Shown: one piece after another, positions 8,413-28,376 of the stretch
Layout of the letters: the number at the start of each line of letters is the position of its first letter
Numbering within the stretch: the stretch's first letter is position 1
From: a virus
Taxonomy: Duplodnaviria > Caudoviricetes
Length of the DNA stretch: 55,692 nt
Strand: one strand, 5' to 3'
IMG/VR virus record: IMGVR_UViG_3300035701_000039
Location: 1 to 55,692 of that record
Translations under genes and position numbers: made by a program
Notes under the pieces: model-generated
Seen by the model: only the letters and a program-made list of their open reading frames with translations
Database searches by the model: none
What the model was told of the DNA's origin: nothing

Positions 8413-9374
8413 GAGTATTCAAAGGGAATAACGTGCCGGGCCTCTACGCCGACATTCTGAGAGAAATTCTCTTGGAAGGAAAAGAAGTGGGTCCTAGAGG
8501 TTTGAAGACGAAGGAACTTAGTCCGGTCTGTATAGAAGTGACGGATCCGAGAAGAAGGTTGTTCGGTCACCCGCACCGGAAGGATGTCAGCATTTTCACC
8601 TACATAGAAGGTCTTTGGATCCTAAGGCATGAGAATAAACCGGATAGATTGGTTCATTACGTTCCAGCAATGGCCAATTTTGTTAATGAAGAAACAGGGG
8701 AACTAGACGGGGCTTACGGTCCAGCTATAAGTACCCAATTGGATCAATGTTTTCAGAGACTTAAGGCGGATCCAGATACCAGACAAGCAGTAGTCATGAT
8801 CAATCAACCTCAACTTCATAGACTCCCAACGAAAGATTTTCCTTGCACCCTTACCTTTCAATTCCTACTTCGGGACGACTTTCTAGATCTGATCGTCAAT
8901 ATGAGGAGTCAAGATGCTTGGCTAGGTTTAATCTATGATACTGGAGAATTTCAGTGGTTTCAAGAGATAATGGCGGGCTGGCTTGGAGTGAATCTAGGGA
9001 GATACTATCATATTGATGGAAGCCTTCACCTCTATGAGAGGGATTGGAAGAAGGCACAAGAGGTTGTGGATTATGATTTCAACTTCGCCCTTTATGATCA
9101 AGCTGTAGTCCTAGATGCTCGGTTAGGAAAATTCGATTATGACCAAATTGAACGTCACATGGCCTTTTGGGAATATGCCTGCAGGAAAGGGGATTTCAAT
9201 TCGGTTGAAGAATGGGAAATTCATAACGATTTCTATATGAATTTGGCTGACATAATTATGGCTTACAATCTGCGACTTGAAGGGCACAAGGAAGAAGCCT
9301 ATGAAATAGTCAGACACAACAAAAGTGATTTAGGTTTAATCTATGAGACAAGGTGGAGAAGAAATGCCGAGTAA
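8409..9374 (+). CDS. Thymidylate-synthase-fold enzyme, probable dCMP (hydroxy)methylase
   Basis: GAYG, TRQA, DFPCT catalytic Cys, MRSQDAWLGLIYD (Asp where ThyA has Asn), SLHLYE. Confidence 0.85.
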   Translation: MRVFKGNNVPGLYADILREILLEGKEVGPRGLKTKELSPVCIEVTDPRRRLFGHPHRKDVSIFTYIEGLWILRHENKPDRLVHYVPAMANFVNEETGELDGAYGPAISTQLDQCFQRLKADPDTRQAVVMINQPQLHRLPTKDFPCTLTFQFLLRDDFLDLIVNMRSQDAWLGLIYDTGEFQWFQEIMAGWLGVNLGRYYHIDGSLHLYERDWKKAQEVVDYDFNFALYDQAVVLDARLGKFDYDQIERHMAFWEYACRKGDFNSVEEWEIHNDFYMNLADIIMAYNLRLEGHKEEAYEIVRHNKSDLGLIYETRWRRNAE

Positions 9375-10199: not shown

Positions 10200-11680
10200 A
10201 CGAAATAGAAGGGATTAGGATTAAGCTTGGAAATGCCAAGAATATTTTTGACGTCATGGACTGTTGCAAGGATTGGAGAGAAATTTTAAGTCTCAGGATC
10301 AAGTCCACTCTTAGACCCTACCAATTACCTCTCTCTGACAAGATGATAGAATATGTCATTTCAGAAGGGATAATCGGGAATGAAATCAGCAGCCTCTGGT
10401 CCAGACAAAGTGGGAAGACTGAAACCGTCGCCTTCACGAGTTTAGTCTTAGGGACCTTCCATAACCTATTCCTAGGAGAGGATTTCGGTTGTGGCCTCTT
10501 TGCCCCGGTTGAAAGCATGATCACTCACGTCACGAGGAACAGGGTTAGACAGAAGTACAAGATGATTAAACACTGGCTGGAAAGGGACGCCCATATAATT
10601 CAAACTGCCGGAGAAGGATATACCGCTGCAACCTTCACCCTTCTGAATCTGGTCAACAACAAGGAATTAACCATAAGGTCTCTATCTGCTGGAGAATCAG
10701 CCTCGATCATTGGTGAAACCTTTAACCTCTTGGTAATTGAACAGTCAGAAATTGTTGACGCCCTCAAACTGAAGACAGACATATTTCCTATGGGAGCAGC
10801 GAAGGGAGGAGTAAGAATAATGACCGGGACAACCTCACCCTACTTTAGGAATGAGTATTTCAGGGAGGCTATTGAGAAGTGGAATAAAGATCCTAAACTG
10901 AACAAGTCCACTTCCGACTTCGTAGAGATGATAGACTGGAAAGAAGCGGCTAAAGTCTGTCCGGCGTATGCCCGTTATGTAAAGAGGGAAAGGGATAAAC
11001 TAGGGGAAGACTCAATAGAATTCAAGACCCAATACGGTTTAGAATGGGTAGGAGTAGCTCTTAAGTTCGTTGCTTGGGAAACCTTAGCCGTTCTTGAGCA
11101 GGACTACCAAAGTCTCAAGGAGAGGTTAAGGTTCTTTGCTGTGGATCCGGCTAGAGCAGGGGACTCGACGGTTGTTACAGTCATAGAACTAGACGGGGCG
11201 TCTATCCATATACTGGGCTGGTTAGAATTGGAAGGTCTAGACTTTGAGACCCATCAGGTCCCTACTATAGTTGAGTGGTTAAAGCAGTATGACCCTCTCA
11301 GGTACGGATTAGTAGATATTGCCGGTCTAGGTCGTCCCGTCTATGATATGTTGAAGAAAAGACTGTGGCCATGGGCTAGACTAGATTCTTATTATCCATC
11401 TGCATCGGGGAATGATGAGGTATTTAAGGCAATGGATCGGGAATTTGCTCATAAGAGAATCTTCTATCCCAAGACGGTGGCTGACGACCAGAAGAAGAAC
11501 AAGGCCAAATTCATCGAGCAGATGTTGGATCTGGAGAGGAAATATACTGGGTTCAGCCTCAAACTTTCAGCCCCTCATATCAAGGGAAGGCATGACGACT
11601 ACCCATGCAGTTTAGCGATGGCTGTATATGCATTGAAGGAGAAAGCGTTTAAGCCGGGTGTTTCCTATGTTGAACTTTAG
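10196..11680 (+). CDS. terL: Terminase large subunit
   Basis: LRPYQ, SRQSGKT Walker A, LLVIEQSE Walker B variant, TGT, AVDPARAGD and HDDYPCSLA nuclease motifs. Confidence 0.93.
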   Translation: MNEIEGIRIKLGNAKNIFDVMDCCKDWREILSLRIKSTLRPYQLPLSDKMIEYVISEGIIGNEISSLWSRQSGKTETVAFTSLVLGTFHNLFLGEDFGCGLFAPVESMITHVTRNRVRQKYKMIKHWLERDAHIIQTAGEGYTAATFTLLNLVNNKELTIRSLSAGESASIIGETFNLLVIEQSEIVDALKLKTDIFPMGAAKGGVRIMTGTTSPYFRNEYFREAIEKWNKDPKLNKSTSDFVEMIDWKEAAKVCPAYARYVKRERDKLGEDSIEFKTQYGLEWVGVALKFVAWETLAVLEQDYQSLKERLRFFAVDPARAGDSTVVTVIELDGASIHILGWLELEGLDFETHQVPTIVEWLKQYDPLRYGLVDIAGLGRPVYDMLKKRLWPWARLDSYYPSASGNDEVFKAMDREFAHKRIFYPKTVADDQKKNKAKFIEQMLDLERKYTGFSLKLSAPHIKGRHDDYPCSLAMAVYALKEKAFKPGVSYVEL

Positions 11681-11737
11681 AATAGTTCATCCTTTCATCT
11701 TTTTAATGCAGTTATCCTTCTTATGGCCTGTTTCATT

Positions 11738-11752
11738 AAAAACATTTAAATA
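11738..11752 (+). promoter_or_regulatory. BRE/TATA promoter for the structured RNA
   Basis: AAAAACA-TTTAAATA at 11745-11752; canonical spacing puts the start site at about G11776. Confidence 0.7.
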
Positions 11753-11774
11753 GAAGATCAGCGCTTATATCTAA

Positions 11775-11911
11775 TGCCGATACCGAACCTTACCGTGACA
11801 AACCACATTGTCGCGGAGATAGGGCGCTACTCTTGTGGAAAGGTCTTTGAACAAAGACTGGGAGTGTGTGATACTGTCCCCACGTTCACGGGATAAGCAA
11901 TCGGGTCGGTA
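11775..11911 (+). ncRNA. Predicted ~136-nt structured RNA (four-way junction with complementary loop and bulge)
   Basis: Ends pair (UGCCGAU-A-CCGA / UCGG-GUCGGUA); 9-bp hairpin 11793-11816; long arm 11818-11878; own promoter and T-tract. Confidence 0.7.
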
Positions 11912-11914
11912 AAC

Positions 11915-11922
11915 TATTTTTT
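11915..11922 (+). terminator. Oligo-T terminator
   Basis: TATTTTTT directly after the closing stem. Confidence 0.6.
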
Positions 11923-11930
11923 ATAGCTAG

Positions 11931-11944
11931 TTCAAGTTTAAATA
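11931..11944 (+). promoter_or_regulatory. TATA promoter for the protease/portal operon
   Basis: TTCAAG-TTTAAATA; the same core occurs at 11745 and 40038. Confidence 0.65.
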
Positions 11945-11968: not shown

Positions 11969-12853
11969 GTGATTAATGTGCCTCCTATTCGTTATAGTGA
12001 AGAGGAAAGAGCGAAGCAGCACGCAGAAATTTTATGGCCGACAGTCCGGATACACACAGAGAAGGCTTGGGGATCAGGGACCATCGTCTATTCTGAAGTG
12101 AACGCTAAAGGGGAATTCGTCTCTTATGTTTTGACCTGCCATCACGTCATTGCCGACAATATCAAGATCGAGAAGAAATTCGATCATAGGGTCGGATATG
12201 ACATCAAGAAGGAGATTAGAATACCGGTAGAGATAGAATTCTTCTATTACGAGAAAATGTCCAGATGTATGGGCATAGCTGGATCCTGCAAGGCTGATAT
12301 AGTCGCTTATGACGAAGATGGTGACATTGCTCTCTTAGAATTCAAAAAGACGTCTAAGACCCAACCTGTAGCAACCTTATTCCCGAAGAATCGGGAAGAT
12401 GAAGTTCATGTCTTCGACGAGGTATGGGCCTGCGGTGCAGCATTAGCCCACGAACCTATAGCCACTAAGGGTATCATAAACTTCATGAATGAAATCCTCG
12501 AGAATGGTGTCGAATACTGGATGAGCAGCGCCCAGATCATTTTCGGCAATTCCGGAGGATCCCTATTCAGGTATAGCGAGGAAAGAGACAAGTATGAATT
12601 CCTAGGCATGCCTGCCCGTATAAGCATCTCCATGTCCGGCTTCAGTGCTGATCCTATAACCCACATGGGGTTCTTTGTCCCCATAACTAGAATCTATGAA
12701 TTCTTGGACAACCATTTCTTCCAGTACATATACGACAAGAACGAGACGTTTGAGACCTGCAAGAAGAAGATGGAAGACTTCAAGAAGGAACAAGAGAAGC
12801 TATTACTAGCCAAATTCGGCGGTTCTCCAGAGCAGGACAAGAGGGAGAAATAG
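11969..12853 (+). CDS. Trypsin-like serine protease
   Basis: GSGT, LTCHHV (His), DIALL (Asp), GNSGG (Ser). Confidence 0.92.
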   Translation: MINVPPIRYSEEERAKQHAEILWPTVRIHTEKAWGSGTIVYSEVNAKGEFVSYVLTCHHVIADNIKIEKKFDHRVGYDIKKEIRIPVEIEFFYYEKMSRCMGIAGSCKADIVAYDEDGDIALLEFKKTSKTQPVATLFPKNREDEVHVFDEVWACGAALAHEPIATKGIINFMNEILENGVEYWMSSAQIIFGNSGGSLFRYSEERDKYEFLGMPARISISMSGFSADPITHMGFFVPITRIYEFLDNHFFQYIYDKNETFETCKKKMEDFKKEQEKLLLAKFGGSPEQDKREK

Positions 12854-16508: not shown

Positions 16509-18527
16509 TTGGGCTGGTTGTCCGGTTGGGGTAGAAAACGTGTCAAACTTACAATAGATGCCGATGACATTGACGCCGACTTAACAGATTTTCCTATTCT
16601 AGTCTACATATCAGCAAGTTCTGGAATCAATGCCGAGGATATGAGTTGTGTCTTTGATGAATTAATTTCGGATGCTAACAGGAAGAAGATAGCGGTTACA
16701 ACAGGCGATGGCGTAACTGAGTGCAAAGTTGAAATAGAGAAATGGGATGACGCTAATGAAAAGGCTTGGTTGTGGGTTAAAGTTCCCACAATAGACGATG
16801 CAAATAACACGGATCTGTACCTTTATTATGATCGCAATCATGCCGACAATGATGCTAATGTCGGTGATCCAGAATCAACTCCTGCCATGGCTGTTTGGGA
16901 TACTAATTTCTTGTTAGTTCAACACATGGAAGATACTGTCCTTGGTGAAGTTTGGGTTAGGCAGGGCAACTGTATAGGTCCAATCGCCGATCAATGGATC
17001 CTCGAATCTTCGGTTATATATGATATTGATCCCCAAATTCTTACTGGAGAAACGAATGTTTTTAAGATGTGGTACCTGAACGAGAATGCTGGAAGTTATG
17101 GTATTTATTATGCCGAATCTACAGATGGACTGTCTTGGACACTCTATAGCAGCAATCCTGTTTTAGCGAGCATACGCAGGGTTTCCATATTTAAAGATGG
17201 TTCAACATTTTATCTATACGGCAGTCCTGATGACGTAAATATTAAACGTTATCACAGTTCTGACGGTTTAAGCTGGACTGATGATGGAATAGTTCTTAGT
17301 CCGAGTGGCAGTGGGTGGGACAGTGTAAGATGCGTTAATTCTTTCGTTTGGAAAGAATCAGCTAATGACTGGAGAATGCTGTACGAAGCGGAAGGAAGTT
17401 TTTGGCAAATTGGTTATGCTACATCCACCGACGGTTTGTCTTGGTCTAAAAGTGGGAGCAACCCAGTAATTCCTGCTCCTAGTGGTGGAGTTCGTGGTGG
17501 TCCATTCGTACAGAAAATAGGTTCCACTTACTGGTGTTGGTGTCATGGTTCAACTGGTGGATTTCTACCAACGGACATTTATCGTTACTATAGCACTAAT
17601 TTAACATCTTGGACGCAAAGTCCTTCTGGAATTGATTTCGCTCGGACTGATTCAGATGAGGGTCCGAGTAGTGGTGCTGGACAAGTCGCGGATCCAAGCT
17701 TGTTAGAAATGGGCGGCAATGTCTACATGTGGTACACGGCCTGTATAACTCAAAACAGCGGAGACATGCACATTAAACTAGCAAAGGCGACTGGGACTTT
17801 TGCTCAAATTATTCTTGCTCCAATAATTTTAGATTCCACAACTAACAACTTGGACGGTACAAAGAAAGACGGTACTCACCCCGCCGTAAACACTAATAGC
17901 AAAATAGCTCATGGTCAGACTCAAGCTTCTGCGGATTACATTGACTTTGGAACTTCAGCAATTTTAAAACCTACTAGTGTCACTGTAGAAGCGTGGGTGA
18001 AAAGTTCTGCCGATACCGGATATATTTTTTGCAAATCATGCGACAATAAGGGTGGACATGTGGCTTATGGTGTGAATTGGGGCGTTTACGCCGCTGGAAA
18101 AATATGGGTCCGCATACAAAAAACTAATGGCGGTTTAAGCCCAACATTTTTAGATTTGAGCGTAACCGTGGCAACAATGAATGATGGCAACTGGCATCAT
18201 GTGACTTTTACTTATGGCGGAGTTGGTACTCCTATAAATCTCTATTATGATGGAGTATTAATAGGCACATCGGCGAATGGAGTAGCTCTTCTTTACGTGT
18301 CAGATATGAATGCTGGAACAGCAGAATATGATATTGTTGGGTGGGAAATTCCATTCGTAGGGGTTTTAGATGAGTTAAGGATTTCTGGTACCGCAAGAGC
18401 GGCTGGTTGGGTTAAGGCGACCTATGAAACCGGAAGGGATCATTTGTTGGTTTGGGGAACGGAAGAATTATTGCCAAGAGGGGCAGGTTCAATTATTCCC
18501 TTTATGGAGGAGATGATCCTTGGCTGA
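16509..18527 (+). CDS. DUF2341 + glycoside-hydrolase-like beta-propeller + LamG/concanavalin adhesin
   Basis: DLTDFPILV, EIEKWD, WVKVP, LYLYY; four YxxSxDGxxW-like repeats; DGNWHHV, LYYDG, LDELRIS. Confidence 0.85.
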   Translation: MGWLSGWGRKRVKLTIDADDIDADLTDFPILVYISASSGINAEDMSCVFDELISDANRKKIAVTTGDGVTECKVEIEKWDDANEKAWLWVKVPTIDDANNTDLYLYYDRNHADNDANVGDPESTPAMAVWDTNFLLVQHMEDTVLGEVWVRQGNCIGPIADQWILESSVIYDIDPQILTGETNVFKMWYLNENAGSYGIYYAESTDGLSWTLYSSNPVLASIRRVSIFKDGSTFYLYGSPDDVNIKRYHSSDGLSWTDDGIVLSPSGSGWDSVRCVNSFVWKESANDWRMLYEAEGSFWQIGYATSTDGLSWSKSGSNPVIPAPSGGVRGGPFVQKIGSTYWCWCHGSTGGFLPTDIYRYYSTNLTSWTQSPSGIDFARTDSDEGPSSGAGQVADPSLLEMGGNVYMWYTACITQNSGDMHIKLAKATGTFAQIILAPIILDSTTNNLDGTKKDGTHPAVNTNSKIAHGQTQASADYIDFGTSAILKPTSVTVEAWVKSSADTGYIFCKSCDNKGGHVAYGVNWGVYAAGKIWVRIQKTNGGLSPTFLDLSVTVATMNDGNWHHVTFTYGGVGTPINLYYDGVLIGTSANGVALLYVSDMNAGTAEYDIVGWEIPFVGVLDELRISGTARAAGWVKATYETGRDHLLVWGTEELLPRGAGSIIPFMEEMILG

Positions 18528-19273: not shown

Positions 19274-19687
19274 ATGAGGTTGGATCCGAATAGCGTGATT
19301 AAGCGGCCTAGATTTTTGACTTCAACTCGAAGACCCGGGTATGATATAGACTTTCATCCTCGCGCTTTTGACAAACCTCTCGCATGTCGGGTTGGAAGAC
19401 ATCCTACTCTAAGAAGGATCATTGGTCCCGGTGGCATACCCCATCTCTATTGCCCCAAATGTGGTTCAAGCATTGGGGAAGGTCTGCATACCGGAACGTG
19501 GAGCAAAGACGACATAGACCGTTTGACGAAGATCAAGCAGGGATTATATTCGGCTCAGAAACCTAGGACGAAGAAAGAGATAATGAATGAGGCTTGGGAG
19601 AAGCACCAAGCATCGGCGGGTCAACGTAAGGAACGAATGGAAGCTTCGATTGAGAGGTTTGTAAAAGAGCGAATGCTCGATGAATGA
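19274..19687 (+). CDS. Zn-finger protein
   Basis: CxxxxH...CPKC; IIGPGG resembles IVGPDG in the upstream gene. Confidence 0.65.
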   Translation: MRLDPNSVIKRPRFLTSTRRPGYDIDFHPRAFDKPLACRVGRHPTLRRIIGPGGIPHLYCPKCGSSIGEGLHTGTWSKDDIDRLTKIKQGLYSAQKPRTKKEIMNEAWEKHQASAGQRKERMEASIERFVKERMLDE

Positions 19688-21455
19688 CTTTTCTTCTAAG
19701 CCTATTAAGTTTCTTTATTTTGAAATAGCTAGGCTTAGGACCCTCTACGATTCTAAACCAGAAATACGTGAGGCTATAATAGAACGGTATGGGCAGGTAG
19801 TGAAGGAACTTGATGGTAGAGGAGCCAAATGGTTCTGGGCACCTCATCTAATAGACCAATTCATTGACATCAAGAAGGCCTTTATTAAACCCAACAAGCC
19901 GGCATGGAGGATCTTTACTCCAGAAGAAGTCTTTGACATTTCCGGATTTGAACTTCCTGTTCTGGTTGACGTCAAGATAGATGGGATGAGGCTTCAGATC
20001 CATAATGATGCTGGGGTACAAATCTATTCTGAAGATGAGGGCCTGAACAAGACTCATAAATTCAAGGAACCTCTAGAGGACATTAAGAAACTGCCGGAAG
20101 GAACGATCCTAGACGCCGAAGGGGTTCTAGTCGCTGATGGACAGGTTCTTCATAGGACTAGTTTCATTGGTTACGTTAACGGGAAGGGGTTTGACGAGGA
20201 GAAGGACAAGCAGACTGAATTTTGGGTCTTTGACGTCCTCAGATGGGGAAATAAGGATCTTACCGATGAGCCATTATCAGTCCGGTTATCCTACCTAAAG
20301 AAGGTTCCGGAATGCAAGCACCTGAAGGTGTTCAAGGCCGGGGAAGAAGCTTTCATCTGTAAGACTAGAGAAGAGGTTCTAACCGCGGTCAAGAAGGTTG
20401 CAGGGAAGAAAGGATCAGAAGGGGCAATGATTAAACTCCTTTCCAGCACATACGTCAAGGACATTCATAATAAAGGCTGGATAAAACTCAAGAACCTCAA
20501 GGAGGTAGACTGTCTAGTAGTTGAGATTGAACAACCCAAACACCAGAAGGGTCCTTTAGAAGGCAAACCGGTTGAGGGAGTATTCAACTATCATGTGGCT
20601 GCTGGTCCATACCCGGAAGCAGATGGTAAGGTTCTTCTAGACAAGGTTTCAACTAAAGTCCGAGAGTATGAGGGGAAAGTCTATGCTCACCTCGGTAAGA
20701 CCTTTAATACCGAGATCAAGGCGAAGGTTGGGGACATAATAAGGGTCTGGTCACCGGAAATAAACAGGTATGAGGTTAAGGATACGAAACTTTATACTTA
20801 TGGAATCTATGAACCCAAGGTTCTGGAATGGGTTCACGAGAGGAATATACCGGATAGTCTGAACGTCCTCAATCGTTTGGCGGAACAGACTTCAGAATTA
20901 CATCCAAGAGAAGTTAATAAGGCTGGGGATTGGTGTGTAGATGGCGGAGGAAATTGGATCACGATTTCCGGTACTCATGTCTGCGTGGGTATTAAAGATC
21001 AAATGGAATTTCAAGGGTCCAACCCTATTCAGGAGACTCGAGTTCGAGCAGCTTTATCTAGACTACCTTTGGGAGATCGTAAAGACTTCAAAAGGGTTTA
21101 TATCCGGGATAGGTTGAATCTATCCGGATATGACGCCACTTTTAAGAGGGATGTTGATGGTTCTTCTTCCATGTTCGTGGCGAAAGAGACTTTGGAAGGT
21201 GAGGACTGGAACAATTTTTCTAATCACGTCATTTCTCACGAAGTAGGTCATAATGTATTCGTTAGAAATCTGACCGAAGATCAGTCTTCGGATTGGAGAA
21301 CTTTCTTCTATGACGCAAAAGATAGTTTTCCGTCCGAGCATTCGCAAATAAATCCGGATGAAGGGTTCGCTGAGGCCTATAGCAGATATCAAACTGGTTT
21401 GCCACTCGATCCCAAAATAAAGGATAAGATTGAGGGACTCGGGATAAAGAGATGA
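19680..21455 (+). CDS. ATP-dependent DNA ligase fused to a C-terminal zincin-like metallopeptidase
   Basis: KIDGMR (motif I), LDAEG (III), VFDVL (IIIa), EGAMIK (IV), WIKLK (V), OB-like region; then WITISGTH, HEVGH and EGFAEAY. Confidence 0.9.
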   Translation: MNDFSSKPIKFLYFEIARLRTLYDSKPEIREAIIERYGQVVKELDGRGAKWFWAPHLIDQFIDIKKAFIKPNKPAWRIFTPEEVFDISGFELPVLVDVKIDGMRLQIHNDAGVQIYSEDEGLNKTHKFKEPLEDIKKLPEGTILDAEGVLVADGQVLHRTSFIGYVNGKGFDEEKDKQTEFWVFDVLRWGNKDLTDEPLSVRLSYLKKVPECKHLKVFKAGEEAFICKTREEVLTAVKKVAGKKGSEGAMIKLLSSTYVKDIHNKGWIKLKNLKEVDCLVVEIEQPKHQKGPLEGKPVEGVFNYHVAAGPYPEADGKVLLDKVSTKVREYEGKVYAHLGKTFNTEIKAKVGDIIRVWSPEINRYEVKDTKLYTYGIYEPKVLEWVHERNIPDSLNVLNRLAEQTSELHPREVNKAGDWCVDGGGNWITISGTHVCVGIKDQMEFQGSNPIQETRVRAALSRLPLGDRKDFKRVYIRDRLNLSGYDATFKRDVDGSSSMFVAKETLEGEDWNNFSNHVISHEVGHNVFVRNLTEDQSSDWRTFFYDAKDSFPSEHSQINPDEGFAEAYSRYQTGLPLDPKIKDKIEGLGIKR

Positions 21456-22228
21456 AGAAGAAGATTTACTTAGATTCAAAATTCAACTCAGTTCCTAAAT
21501 CTGGGGCCAAATATGAGGTTGAATTAACCATAGAAGATGAACAGACAGTCGAGGAAAAATGGAAAATTCTGACTGAAAAGGACCGGGTCGCTAAGCAGGA
21601 TGAAGGCGGGGATGGAGGACATTGGGTCACGGTTAACGGACGACACATCTTCATCGGGGATGAGGAGCAGGGGAATTGGGAAGTCAATTATGAGAAGGTG
21701 TCTGGTTCAAGGCAGAAAGTCGGAGAGAAGACTTACCTTTACAATCAGGATTCAGATGCCTTTCCCGAAGAAGAAAAGAAGAAGATCAGTTCAGCCCTTT
21801 TACTAGAGGACAACAAGATTAAGAATAGATTTTCTTCTGTCCTCTTAACCAAAGGGAAGGACTATTTTGGAATGAATTGGAGGGAATTTGACGGTGAGAA
21901 ATGGGCTAACACCTTGGAAATTTCTAATTCGTCTCCTGAAGCCGTAATGACGATGGAGCATGAGTTCGGGCACGAATACACCAATTACGCCCGGGAAGAA
22001 GGATTGAATGAAGAATTCGAAACGGACTTTAAGAAGGCACGAAAAACTGACGGTTTAGATACAAGCGCATTTTCTCTTACCCCGGAACAGTCCAAGAAAG
22101 ATATAGATGAAGACATCGCTAATGCCTACGCCGCCTACGTCGTGGATCCAAAAGCCCTTAAAGAGGCCAGCCCCAATCGTTACGAAGCCATTAGGGGTCT
22201 GGTTGAGAAGGTGAGGGGTAAACCATGA
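21452..22228 (+). CDS. Zincin-like metallopeptidase with WVTVNGRH motif
   Basis: GGHWVTVNGRHIFI, HEFGH, EDIANAY, LKEASPNRY. Confidence 0.75.
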   Translation: MKKKIYLDSKFNSVPKSGAKYEVELTIEDEQTVEEKWKILTEKDRVAKQDEGGDGGHWVTVNGRHIFIGDEEQGNWEVNYEKVSGSRQKVGEKTYLYNQDSDAFPEEEKKKISSALLLEDNKIKNRFSSVLLTKGKDYFGMNWREFDGEKWANTLEISNSSPEAVMTMEHEFGHEYTNYAREEGLNEEFETDFKKARKTDGLDTSAFSLTPEQSKKDIDEDIANAYAAYVVDPKALKEASPNRYEAIRGLVEKVRGKP

Positions 22229-23634
22229 AGATAGAGAGGATCACCGAAGAAAAGATTGAGACGATCATGGTCTCAGATGAGAATTTCAATTTAGTCATTT
22301 ATGCCTCACCCGGGAAAATGAAGGACGAGGATATTGAGGGGATCATTGAGGATTATCGGCGAAGGAAAGAAACCAAAGGATTTTCTAAGGTTGAGAAGAA
22401 AGAATCTGATTCCATGTATCTACCTCGTCATTCTTGCATGCTCATCTGGTCCGGGGTCAAGACACTGATAGTGAAGGAGAAACACTTTGAAGGCATGCTC
22501 AAGAAGAAAATGAACCTCTGCGATGACAATTACAAATATGGGGACATCATTCTCACTCGGATGTTTGAGATGTCTAGGGAAGAAGTCGACAGGAGTAGGA
22601 AGAGGAGCAGGTTAACGGATCTGGACATGGAGGACTGGAAGGGAGCTAAAATCTTCTACGGGTATGACTTTGAATTCGAACCTTTAGAGGAACCGCAAGA
22701 GGTTAAGGTTCCACATGGCGCCCAAACCTTCTTTAATATCGAGAAGGCTGAAGGTCCTACCTTACCTGAATACGAGGGACTGGCTAAACCGGGTGAACCG
22801 TTACCAGACAAATATTACAAGTTCCATTCTAATGTCAAGGATCCTAAGTTCGTACTTCAGAGGCATTATCCGACTGGGAAGAAGGTGCCGATAAAACCGG
22901 GTGAAGAAGAACCTCAGATGTATAAGAGCTTCGTAGTCGAGTATGATGAGAAACACCCTGAGGCTTTGACCGGTCTAATGTCTGATCTGATAGACCAATA
23001 CGAGGAACTAGACGAGAAGGAACGGGTCAAGATCGAGAAGAGTACGTTTGGGGTCCTCTTCGAGGGTTTAGTGGTTAAGATCCGAGACCATTTGGATCTG
23101 AGGATGGAGATAAGCGATTCTAAATTAGTAGGTGTCACCATTCACCCACCGGTCCCGGGAGGAATAACGGCTTGGGACGCCTTTAAATCTCGCATGACTG
23201 GCGAAGAAAAGACTCAGGTCACGCCTAAGTACGAACACCCTCATCCTTGGCTGACTAGGGAAGGAGAATTAAGATTTCCAACGAGGCACAAGGAACCTCA
23301 AGAGGCCCATTACCTAGAAGTCGCTAGGATGGACATCATAGACACTGGACCGGTTAAGTTCGGGGTTCAGAGGGAAGACCTGCATGAATTCTTCTTCTAT
23401 GGGAAGATTTTAAAAGGCCGATGGGTGATAAGGAAGCTGAAGATAGGAACAGAAGCAGCTCATTGGGCTTGGTTGCTAATGAAACCATCCGACCAGAGAC
23501 CATTAGACCCTGTTCTGCATCGGGATAATGGGCACATTAAGATAGAACGAGTAGCTGAGCCAACGACAGAAGAACGTTCCCATATAGAAGAAGAGACTCA
23601 AGCGGCTAGGGCGGAAAGAGGACAGGAAATTTAG
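22225..23634 (+). CDS. ASCH-like domain + LigD-type 3'-phosphoesterase domain protein
   Basis: MYL...LIWSGVKTLIVK (ASCH-like); FVLQRH, HLDLRME, IDTG, FYGKILKGRW (LigD PE motifs). Confidence 0.8.
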   Translation: MKIERITEEKIETIMVSDENFNLVIYASPGKMKDEDIEGIIEDYRRRKETKGFSKVEKKESDSMYLPRHSCMLIWSGVKTLIVKEKHFEGMLKKKMNLCDDNYKYGDIILTRMFEMSREEVDRSRKRSRLTDLDMEDWKGAKIFYGYDFEFEPLEEPQEVKVPHGAQTFFNIEKAEGPTLPEYEGLAKPGEPLPDKYYKFHSNVKDPKFVLQRHYPTGKKVPIKPGEEEPQMYKSFVVEYDEKHPEALTGLMSDLIDQYEELDEKERVKIEKSTFGVLFEGLVVKIRDHLDLRMEISDSKLVGVTIHPPVPGGITAWDAFKSRMTGEEKTQVTPKYEHPHPWLTREGELRFPTRHKEPQEAHYLEVARMDIIDTGPVKFGVQREDLHEFFFYGKILKGRWVIRKLKIGTEAAHWAWLLMKPSDQRPLDPVLHRDNGHIKIERVAEPTTEERSHIEEETQAARAERGQEI

Positions 23635-23975
23635 GCTCTTATACCGTCGAAGGTTATTGTCAGGGCTATTTGAATCTTGAATTCTAACTGTAATAATTCC
23701 CTAATCCCTTCAGACGTTATGAAGTACTGATGTCGGAAACGATCTGGCTTCGTACGACCTAAACCCGGTCTGGTTCTAAGCCAAGGCAATTTTTCTAAAC
23801 TTGAGGATATGAAATTCTTCTTCTTCAATTCGGCTATGAGAGAATAGAAATGGCCTAAGGGGAAGTCGAATTGAAGGGCGGACATCTTCTTCCTGATCTG
23901 GTAACGAGTGATGTAAGGATGGTCCTTGAGCACCTTGAGGATTATGCATTTTTCTAGGATATACTTGTCTCTCAT
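23631..23975 (-). CDS. PadR-like winged-helix regulator
   Basis: ILKVL...YQIRKK...FYSLIAELKKKNFI...YFITSEG. Confidence 0.8.
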   Translation of the reverse strand: MRDKYILEKCIILKVLKDHPYITRYQIRKKMSALQFDFPLGHFYSLIAELKKKNFISSSLEKLPWLRTRPGLGRTKPDRFRHQYFITSEGIRELLQLEFKIQIALTITFDGIRA

Positions 23976-25063
23976 ACGTGGTACTTCTCGGGGTGAATGA
24001 ATAGGTTTATTATATGGGGTAAATGACTTAGGTCCTTAAAGTTATTGGAATTGAGACGGAGGATCCTGATGCCGAATGAACCAATGTACCTATCCCGTTC
24101 AGCGTCTCTCTCCTTCTGTCCCGGAATAGCAGTATGAAATATACCATCTACCTCAATTAGGAGCATTCGATCGAAGTCAAAGAAGTCCAGATGGTAGAAG
24201 GAACCCCTAGATTTAGATTTAAGCAAAGTGGACAATAAGGTGGCAATTCGCGCACAGAAGTTGAATAATGGACAATAATTCTTTCTGTGGTAATTTATAA
24301 ATTTCAAGCCATGATTCTCCCGTTTGACGTCCAAATCTATGATGGAAGACAAGAACTCTTGGATCTGTCGTCCCACATATTGAACATTCGCCGCCGAGAG
24401 TCTGGATAAGTTTAAGACGCATTTTCCTTTTAAATCTTCTTTCATTTTCTTGTTGTTTCGGAAGAATTTTTCTCTTATTCTTGGAGTAATATTCTCGTTT
24501 GTACTGTTTAAGCTTTTCTTTATTCTTGAGTCGCCATTTATGCTGCTGTTCTCGGTATTTATCCGGATACTTTGCCCGCCAACGATAGACAGCCGCCTTC
24601 CAGACTTCAGGGTGTTTCTGGTAATGTCTTCTATTTGCTTCACTTGCGGGCATGAATCGTTTCTCTCCGAACAACTCCTTAGATAGAGTAAAGTTAATTG
24701 GGTTATATAATCTTTACTAATTTTTGATGGGAATGGACAATTATGGATGAAATTGTTCTCCTCATTAAGGAGGACTAAAGCGGCGAAGGTGTATTCCTCT
24801 AGGGTGGACCAGCAGTTGATGTAATACCGTTTAGACACGTTCGAAGAATACTTGATGAAGGCCCGTTCCTTAGCTGAAGTCGGAGGCATTGGCCGCTTAA
24901 TCGCCTTCAAGAAGGCTCTGTAACCATTGAACCTGTGCATGATCATGTCATAGAGGAAAGGATCCTTCTTCTTGACCTTCTGGTATCTGGGCGAGTGATG
25001 TGGATCCGGGAATAGGGAAATGAAGATTTTCTTCAGTCTCTGTCTAGTCCAAGGATCATTCAT
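23972..25063 (-). CDS. DUF559 / Vsr-like endonuclease interrupted by a 510-bp in-frame insertion
   Basis: STLE...FIHNCPFPSK and SRGSFYHLDFF...IEVDGIFH...RDAERD...GIRILR flank the insert; likely start ATG 25063. Confidence 0.75.
   Translation of the reverse strand: MNDPWTRQRLKKIFISLFPDPHHSPRYQKVKKKDPFLYDMIMHRFNGYRAFLKAIKRPMPPTSAKERAFIKYSSNVSKRYYINCWSTLEEYTFAALVLLNEENNFIHNCPFPSKISKDYITQLTLLYLRSCSERNDSCPQVKQIEDITRNTLKSGRRLSIVGGQSIRINTENSSINGDSRIKKSLNSTNENITPRIREKFFRNNKKMKEDLKGKCVLNLSRLSAANVQYVGRQIQEFLSSIIDLDVKRENHGLKFINYHRKNYCPLFNFCARIATLLSTLLKSKSRGSFYHLDFFDFDRMLLIEVDGIFHTAIPGQKERDAERDRYIGSFGIRILRLNSNNFKDLSHLPHIINLFIHPEKYHV
24212..24721 (-). mobile_element. Promoter + HNH cassette inserted in the DUF559 gene
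   Basis: 510 bp between repeated Ser-Lys codons (TCAAAA / TCTAAA); TTATATAA at 24703-24710; HNH ORF fills the rest. Confidence 0.7.
24219..24674 (-). CDS. HNH homing endonuclease (nested, alternative frame)
   Basis: Basic helical N-terminus; LGGECSICG...FHH...LLCANCH. Confidence 0.88.
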   Translation of the reverse strand: MFGEKRFMPASEANRRHYQKHPEVWKAAVYRWRAKYPDKYREQQHKWRLKNKEKLKQYKREYYSKNKRKILPKQQENERRFKRKMRLKLIQTLGGECSICGTTDPRVLVFHHRFGRQTGESWLEIYKLPQKELLSIIQLLCANCHLIVHFA

Positions 25064-25226
25064 TTCTCTCTTTAAACTTCTTGACAAATTCCATCATGCC
25101 CTTAAAGATGTCTAACTTCTTTGTCAGGCCCAATAACTCTCCGATGTACCAGAAGTCTGAATACTCCTTCGTGGTCAGGTCTAGAAGAAGCTTCTTCCCC
25201 TTAGGTTTCTTATCATTAGGGTTCAA
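25056..25226 (-). CDS. Small RHH-like regulator
   Basis: 3' part of ORF 25056..25346; TTG at 25226 after GGAGGGAG; KKLLLDLT followed by two helices. Confidence 0.55.
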   Translation of the reverse strand: MNPNDKKPKGKKLLLDLTTKEYSDFWYIGELLGLTKKLDIFKGMMEFVKKFKERNE

Positions 25227-25386
25227 GTTTAGCTCCCTCCTTAACCTTCTTCTTGATGTAGTCACGAAAGGCCTCTTCTGCGGCATCATAAAGTTTAGTC
25301 TTAGCCACGCTCGAAGTAGACCTGAATTTCGTCCATAGGACATCATCCACTTCGACCATTACCTTTTTCCTAGTCAACTTAGACAA
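25216..25386 (-). CDS. Ribbon-helix-helix protein (56 aa, not in ORF track)
   Basis: MSKLTRKKVMVEVDDVLWTKFRS...LYDAAEEAFRDYI. Confidence 0.75.
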   Translation of the reverse strand: MSKLTRKKVMVEVDDVLWTKFRSTSSVAKTKLYDAAEEAFRDYIKKKVKEGAKLEP

Positions 25387-25387
25387 C

Positions 25388-25451
25388 TCTTAATAGTATT
25401 AAAGCTCAGACTAGTTAATAAACTTTTAAATTTTGATGATAGGGTATATTA
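25388..25451. promoter_or_regulatory. Divergent AT-rich promoter region (RHH operon vs protease-capsid operon)
   Basis: Adjacent, oppositely oriented TATA-like boxes TTTATTAA (-) and TTTTAAAT (+). Confidence 0.6.
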
Positions 25452-26720
25452 ATGTTCGGACAGTCTATGTATTCGTACAACACAGGGAGTACAATGTCAG
25501 AACTAAATGGATGTCCAGACACCCTTCTCAATTCTGAGTTGGAAATATACAAACATCCATTGGTTCAATCCCTGTTAGATGCCCTTCCCCAACCTCTTAC
25601 TCGCACTCCTTGGTCATTCACTTTTCCCATTTCTAAGAAGATGGAAGAAGAAGGAAAAATCATTATCGCTGGTTATGCTTCCGTAGAGGTCATTGACAGC
25701 CAGAACGAACTTATACCCATACCGGTTCTAAAGGAGGCTTGGGTAAAGTTCAAGGCTAATAAGTATTTTGCTACTGGGTCACTCATGCATTCTAACATTC
25801 CTGTCATTAGGATCCTAGACGAGTACAAAGATTCTAAGGGTCAGGTCTGGAAGAGTGAAGTCGACGACACCGGTCTCTTTATCGTGGCCGAAGTCAGGAA
25901 CGATATCGAGAAGGGGTTGCAGACGATTGAACTTATCAAGGATAATAAACTTACCGGGTTCAGTATAGGAGGGGAAGCCCTAGCTTCTTCTATCATCTGT
26001 GAAGGGAAATGCTACACTAGGATAGACAAGATGGAATTACACGAAATAGCGGTTGTGGACCGTCCGGCAAATCAACCTTCCGTCTTTACCATAGTCAAGT
26101 CGGATAGGTTGAGAAAATTGGCGGAATTGACTGAAGCCCTTCCTGATCTAATCATCAGTCCGGGAGTAGCCAAGGTCGCAGGTTCAGTAGCCGAATTAGG
26201 AGAAGGTCACGATTTCGACCTGATCATAACCGCTTCTGAAGGTTCATTTGTTGACCGGGCAATTCAAACCCGGATTTTTAATGAGCTGAGAAGAAAAGGG
26301 AAAGAAGACCTTTGGAAGAGTCTACATGTCATTCACGAACCGGAAGGTCTAGGACCCTTTACCGATCACTATGACCTGTTCGATCTTGTCCTGTTAAGGT
26401 CTACTCCCCATAAAAGGGACATGACCTACACCGGAGGGGAAAAGACTAAGAACTCCCTCAAGGACAAACTCGTAGAGGAATTCAAACTTAATCCGGGTCA
26501 AGCTGGTTTATTGATCAACTGGCTTGGCGATGCCGCTAAGAAATTAGTGGCTGTTGGGACAAAGAAGGAAAAATTCGAGTGTCCCATTCTAGTCTCAGTA
26601 GAGAAACTAGATGAGGCAATAGACAAGGCCAATTCAAGTAGGATAATGAGAAAATCCATATCTCATCTTGATGAGGCAATTTCAAAGTTATCTCTTAACC
26701 GAGAAACTATAACCTCGTAA
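25452..26720 (+). CDS. HK97-type prohead protease fused to a Pol-beta-superfamily nucleotidyltransferase-like domain
   Basis: IAGYASVEVIDSQNE, LMH, GFSIGG, EIAVVDRPAN; then VAGSVAELGEGHDFDLII. Confidence 0.88.
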   Translation: MFGQSMYSYNTGSTMSELNGCPDTLLNSELEIYKHPLVQSLLDALPQPLTRTPWSFTFPISKKMEEEGKIIIAGYASVEVIDSQNELIPIPVLKEAWVKFKANKYFATGSLMHSNIPVIRILDEYKDSKGQVWKSEVDDTGLFIVAEVRNDIEKGLQTIELIKDNKLTGFSIGGEALASSIICEGKCYTRIDKMELHEIAVVDRPANQPSVFTIVKSDRLRKLAELTEALPDLIISPGVAKVAGSVAELGEGHDFDLIITASEGSFVDRAIQTRIFNELRRKGKEDLWKSLHVIHEPEGLGPFTDHYDLFDLVLLRSTPHKRDMTYTGGEKTKNSLKDKLVEEFKLNPGQAGLLINWLGDAAKKLVAVGTKKEKFECPILVSVEKLDEAIDKANSSRIMRKSISHLDEAISKLSLNRETITS

Positions 26721-26736: not shown

Positions 26737-27270
26737 ATGCCAGAAATTAAAGAACCGGAAAAACCTAAGGAAGAGGAACCGAAAAAGAAAGCATGCGAGG
26801 AACCAGATAAATATCCTAAAGAGGAAAAGGCTGAGGCCGCTCCCCATTGGGCTATTGAACTGGGAGCAAAGATCGACAAGCTTGCGGATGCCATAATTCG
26901 TTCAGCGGCTAAACCTGAAGAGGTTAAGCCGGAAGAGGAAAAGCCGAAGGAGAAGACGAAGGCTGATGCTTATCCCAAGCCACCTGAGGAAGAGAAACCG
27001 AAGGAAGAGGGAAAAGCTGAACCGGAGAAGTATCCTTACGGCAAGGACGAGCAGAAGTTCAAGACCATGATCGAGGACGCAATCAAGTCGGCCAATATAC
27101 CGGATGTTGTTGAGAAAGCAATTTCGAAACGTCTGGTCGAGGAACCGATCGAGAAGCGCGCTAAGGCTGTGGGTCCTGAGAAGGAATCCGAAGTCGACAT
27201 TTCTCCAGAAGCACTAGGCAAGTTGTCTTTTAGAGAAGTCGAAGCACTGGCGAAAAGACTGGGGTCTTAG
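26737..27270 (+). CDS. Capsid scaffolding protein
   Basis: E/K/P-rich low-complexity protein between protease and capsid genes. Confidence 0.75.
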   Translation: MPEIKEPEKPKEEEPKKKACEEPDKYPKEEKAEAAPHWAIELGAKIDKLADAIIRSAAKPEEVKPEEEKPKEKTKADAYPKPPEEEKPKEEGKAEPEKYPYGKDEQKFKTMIEDAIKSANIPDVVEKAISKRLVEEPIEKRAKAVGPEKESEVDISPEALGKLSFREVEALAKRLGS

Positions 27271-27272
27271 AT

Positions 27273-28376
27273 ATGCCAGAAACAATGGAAGAATTCCTAG
27301 CCAAGTTCTACGGTCCTAGAAAGAGACTGTTGAAGACCGCAACCCAAATATCGGATGCGGCAGTCGCTGCTGGGTCTAGAACGATCTGGGAACCAATCTT
27401 TGGCGCTAAGGTCTGGTCATGGCTGAATCTGGAAGCTAACGTATTCGCTATTCTGCCGAAGGAACCATGGGGCAAGTCAGGCTGGCGCATACTAACCGCT
27501 CGAGCTCACGAATCGGGTGGAGGCATAGCTGAAGGCGCAGAGGGTGGAGCAATTCCAGCGTCTGTGACTCTCACCTTTGCTGAGGTATTGGCCGCGCCTA
27601 AACTGGTCAGCCACACCTTCGACATAACGGAACTAGCGGAATTTCTAAGCTCAGCCGACGACGCAATAGACCTGTTCCCGATTTACCGAGAGGAAATTGG
27701 GAAGGAACACGCCTCCTGCATCAACAAAATGCTGGTTGGGGATGCTAACACTGTGGCCGGGAATAACTTCGAATCTTTGGACCGTGTTATAGCGGCTAAA
27801 TCCGAAATAACCGGTGGAAGATACGGAGCTAACGATCTAGACATTTATGGTCTAGACCGAGACAGTCCGACGACCTACGATGCTTACGTAAGTCACAACA
27901 GCGGCACAGACAGGGACCTAAGTCTGTCTCTCATTGATACCGTACTTCAAAATGTATGGGATAATGGAGGCTTACCTAAGGTCATTCTGACCAAGACCGA
28001 CAGCATGATGCGATGGCAGCAACTCCTCGAAGCCGAAAGACGATTCATGGACACCGCTAGGGTAGTCCCTACCTACGGCGGCGTGCGTGGACCGGCTCCG
28101 GGTGTAGAGGCAGGATTCCTAGTCGCAACCTACTTTGGCATACCCATCATACCGAGCATAGACATTCCAGTGGATGACACTATAGGTCCAATATTCTTCA
28201 TCGACACCGATTTTCTCAAGTTCGCGGTTGCTCAACCGACGACCTACGTGGAATCGGGCAAGGGTGAAGGATTCATCTATAGGGGATACTTCAAGACTCA
28301 GGGTCTGTACAAGACAAGGGGCGAGCTTAGGGCATACCGGTTCAACGTTCACGGCAAGCTAGTAGACCTGAAGTAG
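27273..28376 (+). CDS. Major capsid protein (HK97 fold)
   Basis: Size and position; GAKVWSWLNLEANVFAILPKEPWxKSGWR, ESLDRV, TYFGIPII, HGKLVDLK typical of archaeal tailed-virus capsid proteins. Confidence 0.92.
   Translation: MPETMEEFLAKFYGPRKRLLKTATQISDAAVAAGSRTIWEPIFGAKVWSWLNLEANVFAILPKEPWGKSGWRILTARAHESGGGIAEGAEGGAIPASVTLTFAEVLAAPKLVSHTFDITELAEFLSSADDAIDLFPIYREEIGKEHASCINKMLVGDANTVAGNNFESLDRVIAAKSEITGGRYGANDLDIYGLDRDSPTTYDAYVSHNSGTDRDLSLSLIDTVLQNVWDNGGLPKVILTKTDSMMRWQQLLEAERRFMDTARVVPTYGGVRGPAPGVEAGFLVATYFGIPIIPSIDIPVDDTIGPIFFIDTDFLKFAVAQPTTYVESGKGEGFIYRGYFKTQGLYKTRGELRAYRFNVHGKLVDLK

Follow-up and report, generated by a model that had tools for sequence, protein, structure and literature searches.

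Why would a tailed virus keep enzymes that heal and seal nucleic-acid ends among the genes that build its head? The question is raised by IMG/VR record IMGVR_UViG_3300035701_000039, a complete viral record of 55,692 bp that was analysed over its whole length (hereafter ‘the window’), in which ORFs A, B and C lie between a MuF-like gene and the genes for protease (ORF G), scaffold and capsid. Together, these four open reading frames (ORFs) encode a predicted ATP-dependent DNA ligase, a LigD-type 3'-phosphoesterase (PE), an ASCH-like module, two zincin-like peptidases and, as part of the prohead protease, a nucleotidyltransferase (NTase)-like domain. A preliminary description of this DNA took the locus for a Ku-less end-joining system, packaged with the genome and ejected with it. 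Synthesising domain searches with comparisons across relatives, we find support for treating the ligase, the PE and the ASCH-like and NTase-like domains as a single functional unit with ties to head assembly; our best reading, which we hold at somewhat better than even chances, is that of a packaged kit for the repair of nicks, gaps or breaks in the incoming DNA.

Results

The enzymes of the head module

The ORF calls recover the four elements of that description, all on the plus strand and where they had been placed (Table 1), and PolB is indeed encoded at a distance from them. ORFs A, B and C, with a 137-amino-acid (aa) ORF ahead of them, are most likely to be read as one unit, as they are chained by overlaps of 8 nt (137-aa ORF/ORF A), 4 nt (ORF A/ORF B) and 4 nt (ORF B/ORF C).

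Table 1. Features of the head module, and other genes named in the text, by position in the window
Feature	Position	Strand	Remark
TopoVI-A/Spo11-type Toprim protein, 551 aa	3219-4874		E 2e-8
Thymidylate synthase	8409-9374		
Terminase	from 10196		head module start
Portal	from 13076		head module
MuF-C-terminal-like small head protein, 95 aa	18520-18807	+	upstream edge of module
Two small ORFs, 122 aa and 137 aa	18901-19687	+	conserved in L002-L005, L010, L011
ORF A, 591 aa	19680-21455	+	ATP-dependent DNA ligase fused to zincin-like metallopeptidase
Leader module of ORF A	19680-19871	+	N-terminal 64 aa
Ligase core of ORF A	19959-20924	+	adenylation domain aa 94-271; presumed OB region to ~aa 415
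Junction motif and zincin-like peptidase domain of ORF A	20955-21455	+	alignment A5
ORF B, 258 aa	21452-22228	+	second zincin-like protein; HEFGH 170-174
ORF C, 469 aa	22225-23634	+	ASCH-like module and divergent LigD-type PE
N-terminal 60 aa of ORF C	22225-22404	+	common to P0001, P0012
ASCH-like (PUA-like) module of ORF C	22411-22734	+	aa 63-170
PE domain of ORF C	22849-23502	+	aa 209-426; profile evidence
Minus-strand island	23631-25386	-	PadR-like winged helix-turn-helix (wHTH) protein (114 aa), DUF559 protein (371 aa), small ORF
ORF G, 422 aa	25452-26720	+	prohead protease with NTase-like domain
HK97-type prohead serine protease domain of ORF G	25623-26126	+	aa 58-225
NTase-like domain of ORF G	26142-26441	+	aa 231-330
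Two C-terminal (K/H)LDEAI repeats of ORF G	26598-26690	+	
Scaffold-like protein (177 aa) and major capsid protein (367 aa)	26737-28376	+	downstream edge of module
PolB	51473-54028		replication gene, away from head module

The fusion of a ligase to a peptidase in ORF A holds on both sides. PF01068 matches aa 94-271 (E 4.9e-22; 79 bits against a cut-off of 26.2), a whole-genome search places the ligase at 19959-20492 with 82 bits, as the sole PF01068 match in the 55,692-bp record, and phrog_114 (ligase) matches with E 1.3e-20; among solved chains, archaeal DNA ligases and DNA ligase 4 come nearest (E 7.5e-10). The motif I lysine is K99, in KIDG, other motifs occupy 143-149, 181-187, 247-252 and 267-271, and ILDAEGV, FWVFDVL, EGAMIK and WIKLK line up with their counterparts in chain 3gde; we take these to be motifs I, III, IIIa, IV and V. 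PF04679 (OB) has no match in ORF A, and the ~145 aa that follow the adenylation domain, conserved in relatives to q405-415, would make up the OB region. The NCBIfam model of the non-homologous end-joining (NHEJ) ligase domain scores ORF A like the general ligase model (E 5.4e-20), with all NCBIfam scores of this ORF far under the family cut-offs.

Beyond the ligase, a ‘junction’ motif (WITISGTHVCVG, aa 426-437) precedes the zincin-like domain, which bears HEVGH at 520-524 and EGFAEAY (E-x-x-AEA) at 561-567. Its resemblance to lethal-factor-type zincins is weak: Pfam ATLF gives E 0.1 for ORF A and 4.4e-5 for the homologue P0019, and the peptidase profile (A5) meets lethal factor (2l0r) at E 0.012. 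(P-numbers denote related proteins and L-numbers related loci.) ORF B, which the preliminary description had passed over, has no Pfam match above threshold, carries its own junction motif (HWVTVNGRHIFIG) at aa 57-69, and has an orthologue in L004 that is 99% identical; HExxH plus Glu are conserved in the peptidases of alignment A5.

The junction motif, W-[IV]-T-x-x-G-x-H-[IV]-x-[IV], frequently with GG or DWC ahead of it, stands at 20955-20990 and 21623-21658 of the window and is also found in L001, L002, L004, L007, L013, P0001, P0015 and P0018. It marks domain borders in the head-module proteins of this clade, before peptidase, GNAT and other modules and inside some proteases, and was found in 0 of 146 distant PE representatives.

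ORF C carries a divergent LigD-type phosphoesterase domain

Taken alone, ORF C matches nothing in Pfam, PHROG or NCBIfam, nor in the PDB by phmmer, and tblastn returned 0 matches among 50,697 GenBank phage records; the assignment is one of profiles. Searched against 1.84 billion proteins, a profile of 10 close homologues of the PE domain (A1) retrieved 297 cluster representatives with E<=1e-3, of which 38 reach E<=1e-10; in the PDB it found nothing meaningful. A broader PE alignment with the window's domain as its first row (A3) matched 3p43 (2.5e-6), 3p4h (5.3e-6), 3n9b/2lj6 (3.2e-4) and 5dmp (7.2e-4); all five PDB matches are PE-superfamily chains, or chains aligned over that domain, and nothing else was matched. 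Pfam was run on 101 of the 150 listed relatives (the first 49 hand-picked, the next 52 in rank order from the 85 remaining proteins of at least 150 aa), and LigD_N appears in 16 of these, at best with 2.3e-15; in P0040, P0058, P0084, P0087 and P0048 it covers the same residues as the PE profile, and in the close homologue P0018 it falls below the cut-off (E 0.008). In the Atlas, the homologue P0011 has feature scores of 0.93, 0.91 and 0.90 to LigD_N clusters (24 of 30 hits), with a TM of 0.83 measured on a mostly archaeal LigD_N cluster of 124 aa.

Alignment to solved PE chains finds H214, H289, D291, R293 and H338 all present, with W342 in place of a Tyr; we take the roles of these residues to be those known from work on Pseudomonas LigD. 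On this evidence, ORF C carries, as had been proposed, a 3'-phosphoesterase domain of the LigD type; it is divergent, with its catalytic set intact. P0018 (669 aa), which ends in a DUF6932/Polbeta NTase (E 9.2e-11), has an entire zincin peptidase domain within its PE, at the same loop that carries an insert of ~70 aa in the window; this loop therefore tolerates insertions.

The other half of that proposal, the ASCH-like module, is borderline (see below). Pfam ASCH does not match it, a 4-sequence profile (A7) found nothing meaningful in the PDB, and no short stand-alone ASCH-like homologue was found.

The prohead protease and its NTase-like domain

ORF G is identified as a prohead protease by Peptidase_S78 (PF04586, E 2.2e-9; 38.1 bits against a cut-off of 21), phrog_80 (E 2.1e-12) and TIGR01543 (E 8.1e-10), and the scaffold and capsid genes adjoin it. 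The NTase motif that had been noted in this protein, AGSVAELGEGHDFDLIITA (aa 243-261), is present, with its G, S, D and D invariant in 10 of 10 homologues (alignment A4), each of them likewise fused to an S78 protease. Its landmarks are G244-S245, D253-F-D255, HEPEGLGPF (295-303) and LFDLVLLR (309-316), and HEPEGLGPF and DLVLLR are invariant or nearly so in the A4 homologues. The signature hG[GS]-x(8-13)-D-h-[DE]-h fits, its G, D and D being invariant in all 17 rows of alignment A9. Direct phmmer of the ORF G C-terminus against the PDB gave nothing meaningful; among the weak PDB matches listed, 43 of 44 belong to the Pol-beta superfamily (TdT, Pol mu, Pol beta, Pol X and minimal NTases), and in the Atlas, rows 2-10 of 10 for the model of homologue P0174 are NTP_transf_2/Polbeta with TM 0.43-0.54, all under the naming bar. 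We consider a Pol-beta-type NTase fold probable, as the weakest of our domain calls; the module would be at best a minimal Pol-beta/Pol X-like ‘palm’, a call built on the motif and on weak profile and structure leads.

A tail of the form ...KLD.A.S.L, similar to the repeats that close ORF G, ends the proteases of most aligned relatives, whatever domain is inserted before it, and is a possible capsid-targeting end by analogy with the HK97 protease.

A unit fused repeatedly, and fused to head proteases

The modules of the window were compared by local phmmer with 146 distant representatives from the PE profile (P0024-P0169). Matching representatives number 68 for the ligase, 17 for the ASCH-like module, 14 for the NTase-like module and 2 for the S78 protease; by architecture, 37 are LIG-PE, 8 ASCH-LIG-PE, 7 NTase-LIG-PE and 68 PE only, and in 14 polyproteins of the 146 the NTase-like module lies N-terminal to the ligase. 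These counts are lower bounds, as phmmer missed the ligases of P0048 and P0142 that Pfam detects. Among the 101 relatives scanned with Pfam, 45 have a ligase, 18 an XkdF head protease, 2 a DUF2213 domain and 15 an MBL-fold hydrolase, which adjoins the ligase in each case; there are also D12 DNA methylases (5), a C5 DNA methylase (1), a uracil-DNA glycosylase (UDG; 1), pyrimidine-dimer glycosylases (2), and one each of Acb1, MuF, PNK 3'-phosphatase and NTP_transf_2.

Whole architectures were resolved by scanning another set of 10 proteins with Pfam, of which 8 are not among the 101. P0142 combines NTase-like module, ligase, PE and XkdF, P0137 likewise with the addition of a methyltransferase, and P0134 has NTase-like module, PE and XkdF, with XkdF at the C-terminal end of all three. 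P0093 joins a pyrimidine-dimer glycosylase to NTase-like module, ligase and PE; P0050 and P0098 are LIG-PE proteins fused to an S78 protease related to that of the window (E 1e-19); and P0048, a protein for which no relative was found in viral contigs, has a protease part that matches prohead proteases annotated in cultured phages. Closer relatives reshuffle the same modules: ligase and PE in P0007; ligase, ASCH-like module and peptidase in P0019-21; leader, GNAT, ASCH-like module and PE in P0001; PE and peptidase in P0015; PE, peptidase and NTase in P0018; and, in L005, an ORF of at least 985 aa with ligase, ASCH-like module, a short and a long PE. Relatives also carry zincin peptidase, GNAT, DNA methyltransferase, Acb1 and MuF domains.

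Gene order points the same way. L001-L005 keep the succession portal, MuF-like gene, 122-/137-aa ORFs, ligase and PE genes, minus-strand island, protease, scaffold and capsid. In L016, an unrelated phage contig, portal and MuF-type head morphogenesis genes are followed by an 838-aa NTase-LIG-PE-protease polyprotein, and then by the capsid gene; this protein is 53% identical to P0142 and has GS...DLD at aa 90, KIDG at 218, HGDLR at 544 and an XkdF-like region at 726-831. The L016 portal resembles those of Bacillus phages, and its capsid protein those of Nitratiruptor phages. In this phage of bacterial type, then, the kit appears to occupy the position of the head-protease gene (the contig is partial, and another protease was not sought).

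We regard the view of the ligase, PE, ASCH-like and NTase-like domains as one functional unit as supported by their repeated fusion in single polypeptides, and its tie to head assembly as supported by the fusions to XkdF/S78 proteases and by the protease position in L016, between MuF and capsid genes; both had been put forward in the preliminary description, and both gain from the relatives.

The leader of ORF A behaves differently from its cargo. Its 64 aa are 44% identical to the start of a 247-aa protein of L011 (E 1e-17), in which the leader is followed by GKWVTLEGGQHIFI and then by an NTase-like motif, G..G..S.HDVDLLV, with no ligase. Both L010 and L011 retain the leader, followed by the junction motif and a different NTase-like motif, and lack ligase and PE; because the leader is there joined to other cargo, it would be a conserved ‘handle’ for exchangeable modules, and the kit would be optional. 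In L011 (5560-6300 and 6797-8632), the 247-aa leader/NTase-like protein thus replaces the ligase, and on the minus strand, before the protease, a LonB-type protease gene (Lon_C, E 1.1e-21) stands instead of the wHTH/DUF559 island.

Other features of these relatives may be recorded here. L002 has, at 10935-11936 between the PE gene and the island, an extra gene for a 333-aa protein with an N-terminal hydrophobic, signal-like segment. P0022 (L005 7922-10876) has PEs in tandem, a short and canonical-looking one (FVLHRHYGSDLNTHFDLRW) and one of the long, insert-bearing type; its ORF runs to the contig end, since L005 and L008 are the opposite ends of a single contig of 51 kb. Inteins and LAGLIDADG endonucleases occur in some ligase-PE polyproteins (alignments A2 and A8), and one such protein contains Acb1, an anti-CBASS nuclease (E 2.6e-22).

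Not a LigD/NHEJ system

The absence of Ku had been read correctly: PF02735 has no match at E<=1 in the complete genome. The NTase-like domain, for its part, is not the LigD polymerase, which has a primase-polymerase fold; no primase-polymerase (AEP) family is among the Pfam matches of ORFs A, B, C and G. With neither Ku nor a LigD-type polymerase, ‘end joining’ is not established, and with neither Ku nor a primase-polymerase domain the region is not a LigD/NHEJ system in the family sense.

Discussion

Mechanism

We propose, as the most economical account, the following model for how such a unit would work. It would consist of a ligase, a Mn-type PE for the predicted cleaning of 3'-phosphate or 3'-ribonucleotide ends, an ASCH-like module that would bind nucleic acid and a minimal Pol-beta-type NTase; in the style of polyvalent proteins, these modules would be joined to zincin-like peptidases able to cut them apart, with one module housed in the prohead protease. 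The proteins would be made late, together with the head proteins, and would then enter the prohead, the NTase-like domain on the protease and the products of ORFs A-C through leader modules or other contacts; there, the zincin and head proteases would trim the cargo, which would leave the capsid with the DNA. In the new cell, 3'-end cleaning, optional nucleotide addition, and ligation of nicks, gaps or breaks would follow, where ligation could start from pre-adenylated ligase. In this model, encapsidation and ejection, a DNA rather than an RNA substrate, and a role in counter-defence are inferred; what the comparisons above show are the identities of the domains, their repeated fusion to each other, and their repeated fusion or proximity to head-maturation proteases. 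The substrate leans towards DNA because the ligase is of the DNA ligase family and because DNA glycosylases and DNA methylases are among the co-fused partners; nick or gap repair, in which 3'-blocked ends call for a phosphoesterase, is suggested by the glycosylases no less than the joining of double-strand ends.

Competing explanations

A number of observations weigh against a packaged DNA-repair kit. At the level of the domains, Pfam LigD_N finds no match in the genome at E<=10, and an insert of ~70 aa splits the PE domain between its first His (H214) and H289-x-D291-x-R293; a 15-row ASCH-like profile (A10) meets 1wk2/2dp9 (TTHA0113), which we take to have an ASCH-family fold, at a borderline E of 1.2e-3 over 112 of 117 positions, and RNA is the usual association of ASCH domains, which are generally predicted to bind it. 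The NTase-like module has no Pfam match, its 17-row profile (A9) has no significant match in the PDB (best E 0.07), and hhalign to two NTase-bearing relatives aligned the motif only, with a probability of 8-11%. At the level of the genome, ORF A is the sole ligase of a virus with its own PolB, and could thus simply be the replication ligase; no capsid-targeting signal was recognised in ORFs A-C; the close relatives L010 and L011 lack ligase and PE, so that the kit is dispensable; and both the location in the virion and the late timing of the kit proteins are steps that we infer.

These genomic points, with the presence of thymidylate synthase alongside PolB, would sit comfortably with ordinary intracellular replication, repair or genome-maturation enzymes that are not packaged and that have come to lie in a late head operon by chance; the ligase would then seal Okazaki fragments, or nicks in concatemers prior to packaging, PE and NTase would clean ends, and the protease fusions elsewhere would be accidents of gene order. 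We think this unlikely, though not far-fetched, given the repeated in-frame fusions to head proteases (XkdF in 18 of 101 relatives, and P0050 and P0098), an L016 in which the kit is the protease gene, the leader that carries different cargo in L011, and the fused zincin, GNAT, methylase and Acb1 domains that are typical of injected polyvalent proteins. Repair of RNA by a kit packaged or not, which the preliminary description had named as an alternative, would have the PE remove the 2',3'-cyclic or 3'-phosphate termini that host anticodon nucleases or HEPN RNases produce, the NTase rebuild 3' ends such as CCA, the ligase reseal tRNA or other RNA, and the ASCH-like module bind it. The generally predicted RNA-binding of ASCH domains, the action of LigD PE on 3'-ribonucleotide ends and the likeness of the NTase-like module to minimal NTases all fit; related ligases also score with the Pfam RNA_ligase (3 of 52) and capping-enzyme (5 of 52) models, P0103 with E 5.9e-5, and one relative has a PNK 3'-phosphatase domain. 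Set against this, the ligase fits DNA ligase models far better (PF01068, E 4.9e-22) and has DNA ligases as its nearest solved chains, the partners (UDG, pyrimidine-dimer glycosylase, D12 and C5 methylases) act on DNA, and the Pfam scan saw no 5'-kinase domain in the window; we judge an RNA kit to be quite improbable. Finally, the modules might be degenerate passengers, a head filler or scaffold with no catalysis after ejection, as the large insert and the Tyr-to-Trp change in the PE, and NTase-like and ASCH-like modules too diverged for Pfam, could be taken to indicate. We give this very little credence, as catalytic motifs are kept in very distant relatives: KxDG and motifs III-V of the ligase, H/HxDxR/K/W with a GR motif in the PE, HExxH plus Glu in the peptidases, and the G[SG]...DxD of the NTase, which does not vary in any of 17 rows.

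Relation to known systems

LigD of Ku-dependent NHEJ, for example that of Pseudomonas aeruginosa (PE structures 3n9b/3n9d/2lj6), likewise unites an ATP-dependent ligase, a PE of the same superfamily and a nucleotide-adding activity (here a candidate one), and its PE His/His/Asp/Arg/His set is conserved in the window. Unlike LigD, the window lacks Ku and an AEP domain, having instead a candidate Pol-beta-type module of ~100 aa; its PE has the ~70-aa insert and Trp for Tyr; and its modules are split over several genes of a viral head operon, where they are joined to zincin peptidases and a prohead protease. The archaeal NHEJ set is itself split as Ku/Lig/Pol/PE. Stand-alone archaeal PEs (3p43, 3p4h/3ta5/3ta7) are the best solved matches to the PE of the window and, as here, are separate polypeptides from the ligase, but they are cellular repair genes of ~120-150 aa, whereas the PE of the window has ~220 aa, an ASCH-like fusion and a place in a morphogenesis module. 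Family X polymerases, including a viral Pol X of 174 aa, share the G-G/S...D-x-D palm motif (at a non-significant E 0.07-1.2); the ~100-aa module differs in having no recognisable fingers, thumb or 8-kDa domains, and the similarity is one of motif only.

Healing and sealing against a host nuclease has a precedent in tRNA repair by T4 Pnkp and Rnl1, which also pairs a 3'-phosphatase with a ligase; that system differs in using a HAD phosphatase/kinase and RNA ligases, in acting post-infection and on RNA, and in having no link to the head. The T4 internal proteins (IPI-III, Alt), like the C-terminal region of the HK97 protease, are targeted to the capsid, by a peptide or by riding on the protease or scaffold, and internal cargo of the T4 type is trimmed by the head protease, ejected with the DNA and the first to act in the cell. 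The known cargoes are inhibitors or ADP-ribosyltransferases; a ligase-based repair set is not known among them.

The closest parallel in style lies with the polyvalent proteins, which the article text of Iyer 2017 (PMC5512222) describes as multi-domain proteins that combine unrelated activities around a lethal-factor-related zincin ‘hub’, with GNAT and Pol-beta NTases among their modules. They are associated with MuF, portal and head genes, and the prediction is that they are packaged, and injected to act against host defence. ORF A similarly joins a ligase to an HExxH domain, the modules that occur together in relatives are ligase, ASCH-like, PE, GNAT, NTase and metallopeptidase, and the kit of the window lies near MuF, portal and head genes, with a likeness to lethal factor that is weak. 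It differs in that the polyprotein is partly split into separate genes. The word ‘LigD’ has 0 occurrences in the article texts of Iyer 2017 (PMC5512222) and Iyer 2021; that of Iyer 2017 uses ‘ligase’ solely in a remark on RNA ligases, and describes neither a ligase/PE/ASCH-like unit nor a prohead-protease fusion. Across the main texts of open-licence papers and preprints, we found no description of a DNA ligase or LigD PE in polyvalent or protease-fused phage proteins. The kit of the window would thus be a variant of polyvalent, capsid-delivered effector proteins, in a new arrangement.

Implications

We also speculate on a wider reading, which we hold tentatively and with the balance tipped against it, namely that archaeal and bacterial tailed viruses load their capsids with a self-sufficient DNA ‘first-aid kit’, made up of a ligase that may be pre-adenylated, a LigD-type enzyme to clean 3' ends, a mini NTase and an ASCH-like reader of DNA or RNA, that is injected with the genome, and that mends nicks or breaks due to restriction, CRISPR or other host nucleases before viral gene expression. 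If true, this would be a new class of counter-defence, acting by repair rather than by inhibition or DNA modification, and built as polyproteins anchored to the head-maturation protease; the injected phage proteins that are known block or modify host factors, and a packaged repair kit would add a different principle. A further outcome is a large branch of the LigD PE superfamily (the 297 representatives), for the most part unannotated and typically fused to a ligase, along with a Ku-free, primase-free combination of end-healing and sealing enzymes; as small modular enzymes, these could serve DNA end repair in practice.

Host, gene neighbourhood and minor features

The host is probably archaeal, because the capsid gene is matched in archaeal tailed viruses and the relative L011 has an archaeal LonB-type protease gene. 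The capsid gene (27273-28376) has 9 tblastn matches among the 50,697 GenBank phage records, at 26-30% identity, 8 in haloarchaeal tailed virus records and 1 in a Methanofastidiosa virus; a scan for sigma-70 promoters and terminators is uninformative in a virus that is probably archaeal. No provirus turned up when 185,579 species genomes were scanned with the PE domain and with a capsid alignment, and the window yielded no Rfam family and no tRNA. The sequencing runs listed are DNA contig sets alone, from sediment metagenomes. Its two ends share 32 identical bases and nothing more; we rejected these as real termini and read them as mere assembly overlap. Nearly all long ORFs are on the plus strand.

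At the upstream edge of the module, the 95-aa MuF-like protein matches a PHROG minor head protein (E 5.3e-5) and, below the cut-off, Pfam Phage_Mu_F (E 0.0036), and its gene is syntenic in L002, L004, L005 and L011; the 122- and 137-aa ORFs match no family. At the downstream edge, the capsid protein is matched by SU10_MCP (E 9.9e-8) and phrog_24667 (E 5.1e-34), and the 177-aa protein is putatively scaffold-like by its position and composition alone. Two further genes of the head module may be mentioned: one at 11969-12853, between terminase and portal, encodes a trypsin-like peptidase (Trypsin_2, E 4.1e-12), a second head-module protease besides the S78 prohead protease; the other, at 16509-18527 between portal and MuF-like genes, encodes a 672-aa protein with DUF2341 and a LamG/concanavalin-like domain, an unusual position for a lectin-like protein.

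The minus-strand island separates ORF C from the protease gene, has a GC content down to 0.41 and is kept in L001-L004 and L008; it is not part of the repair kit. Within its DUF559 gene, a segment of 535 bp (24191-24725, minus strand) is missing from L001 and L004, which are otherwise 89-98% identical, with a net gain of 513 bp (171 codons) in frame, such that the protein has 371 aa against ~200 aa in its orthologues. Another frame of the insert holds a 151-aa ORF (24219-24674) with a CxxC...HH...CxxCH pattern, HNH-like and with no Pfam match; the insert looks like a mobile HNH cassette that keeps the frame of its host gene open.

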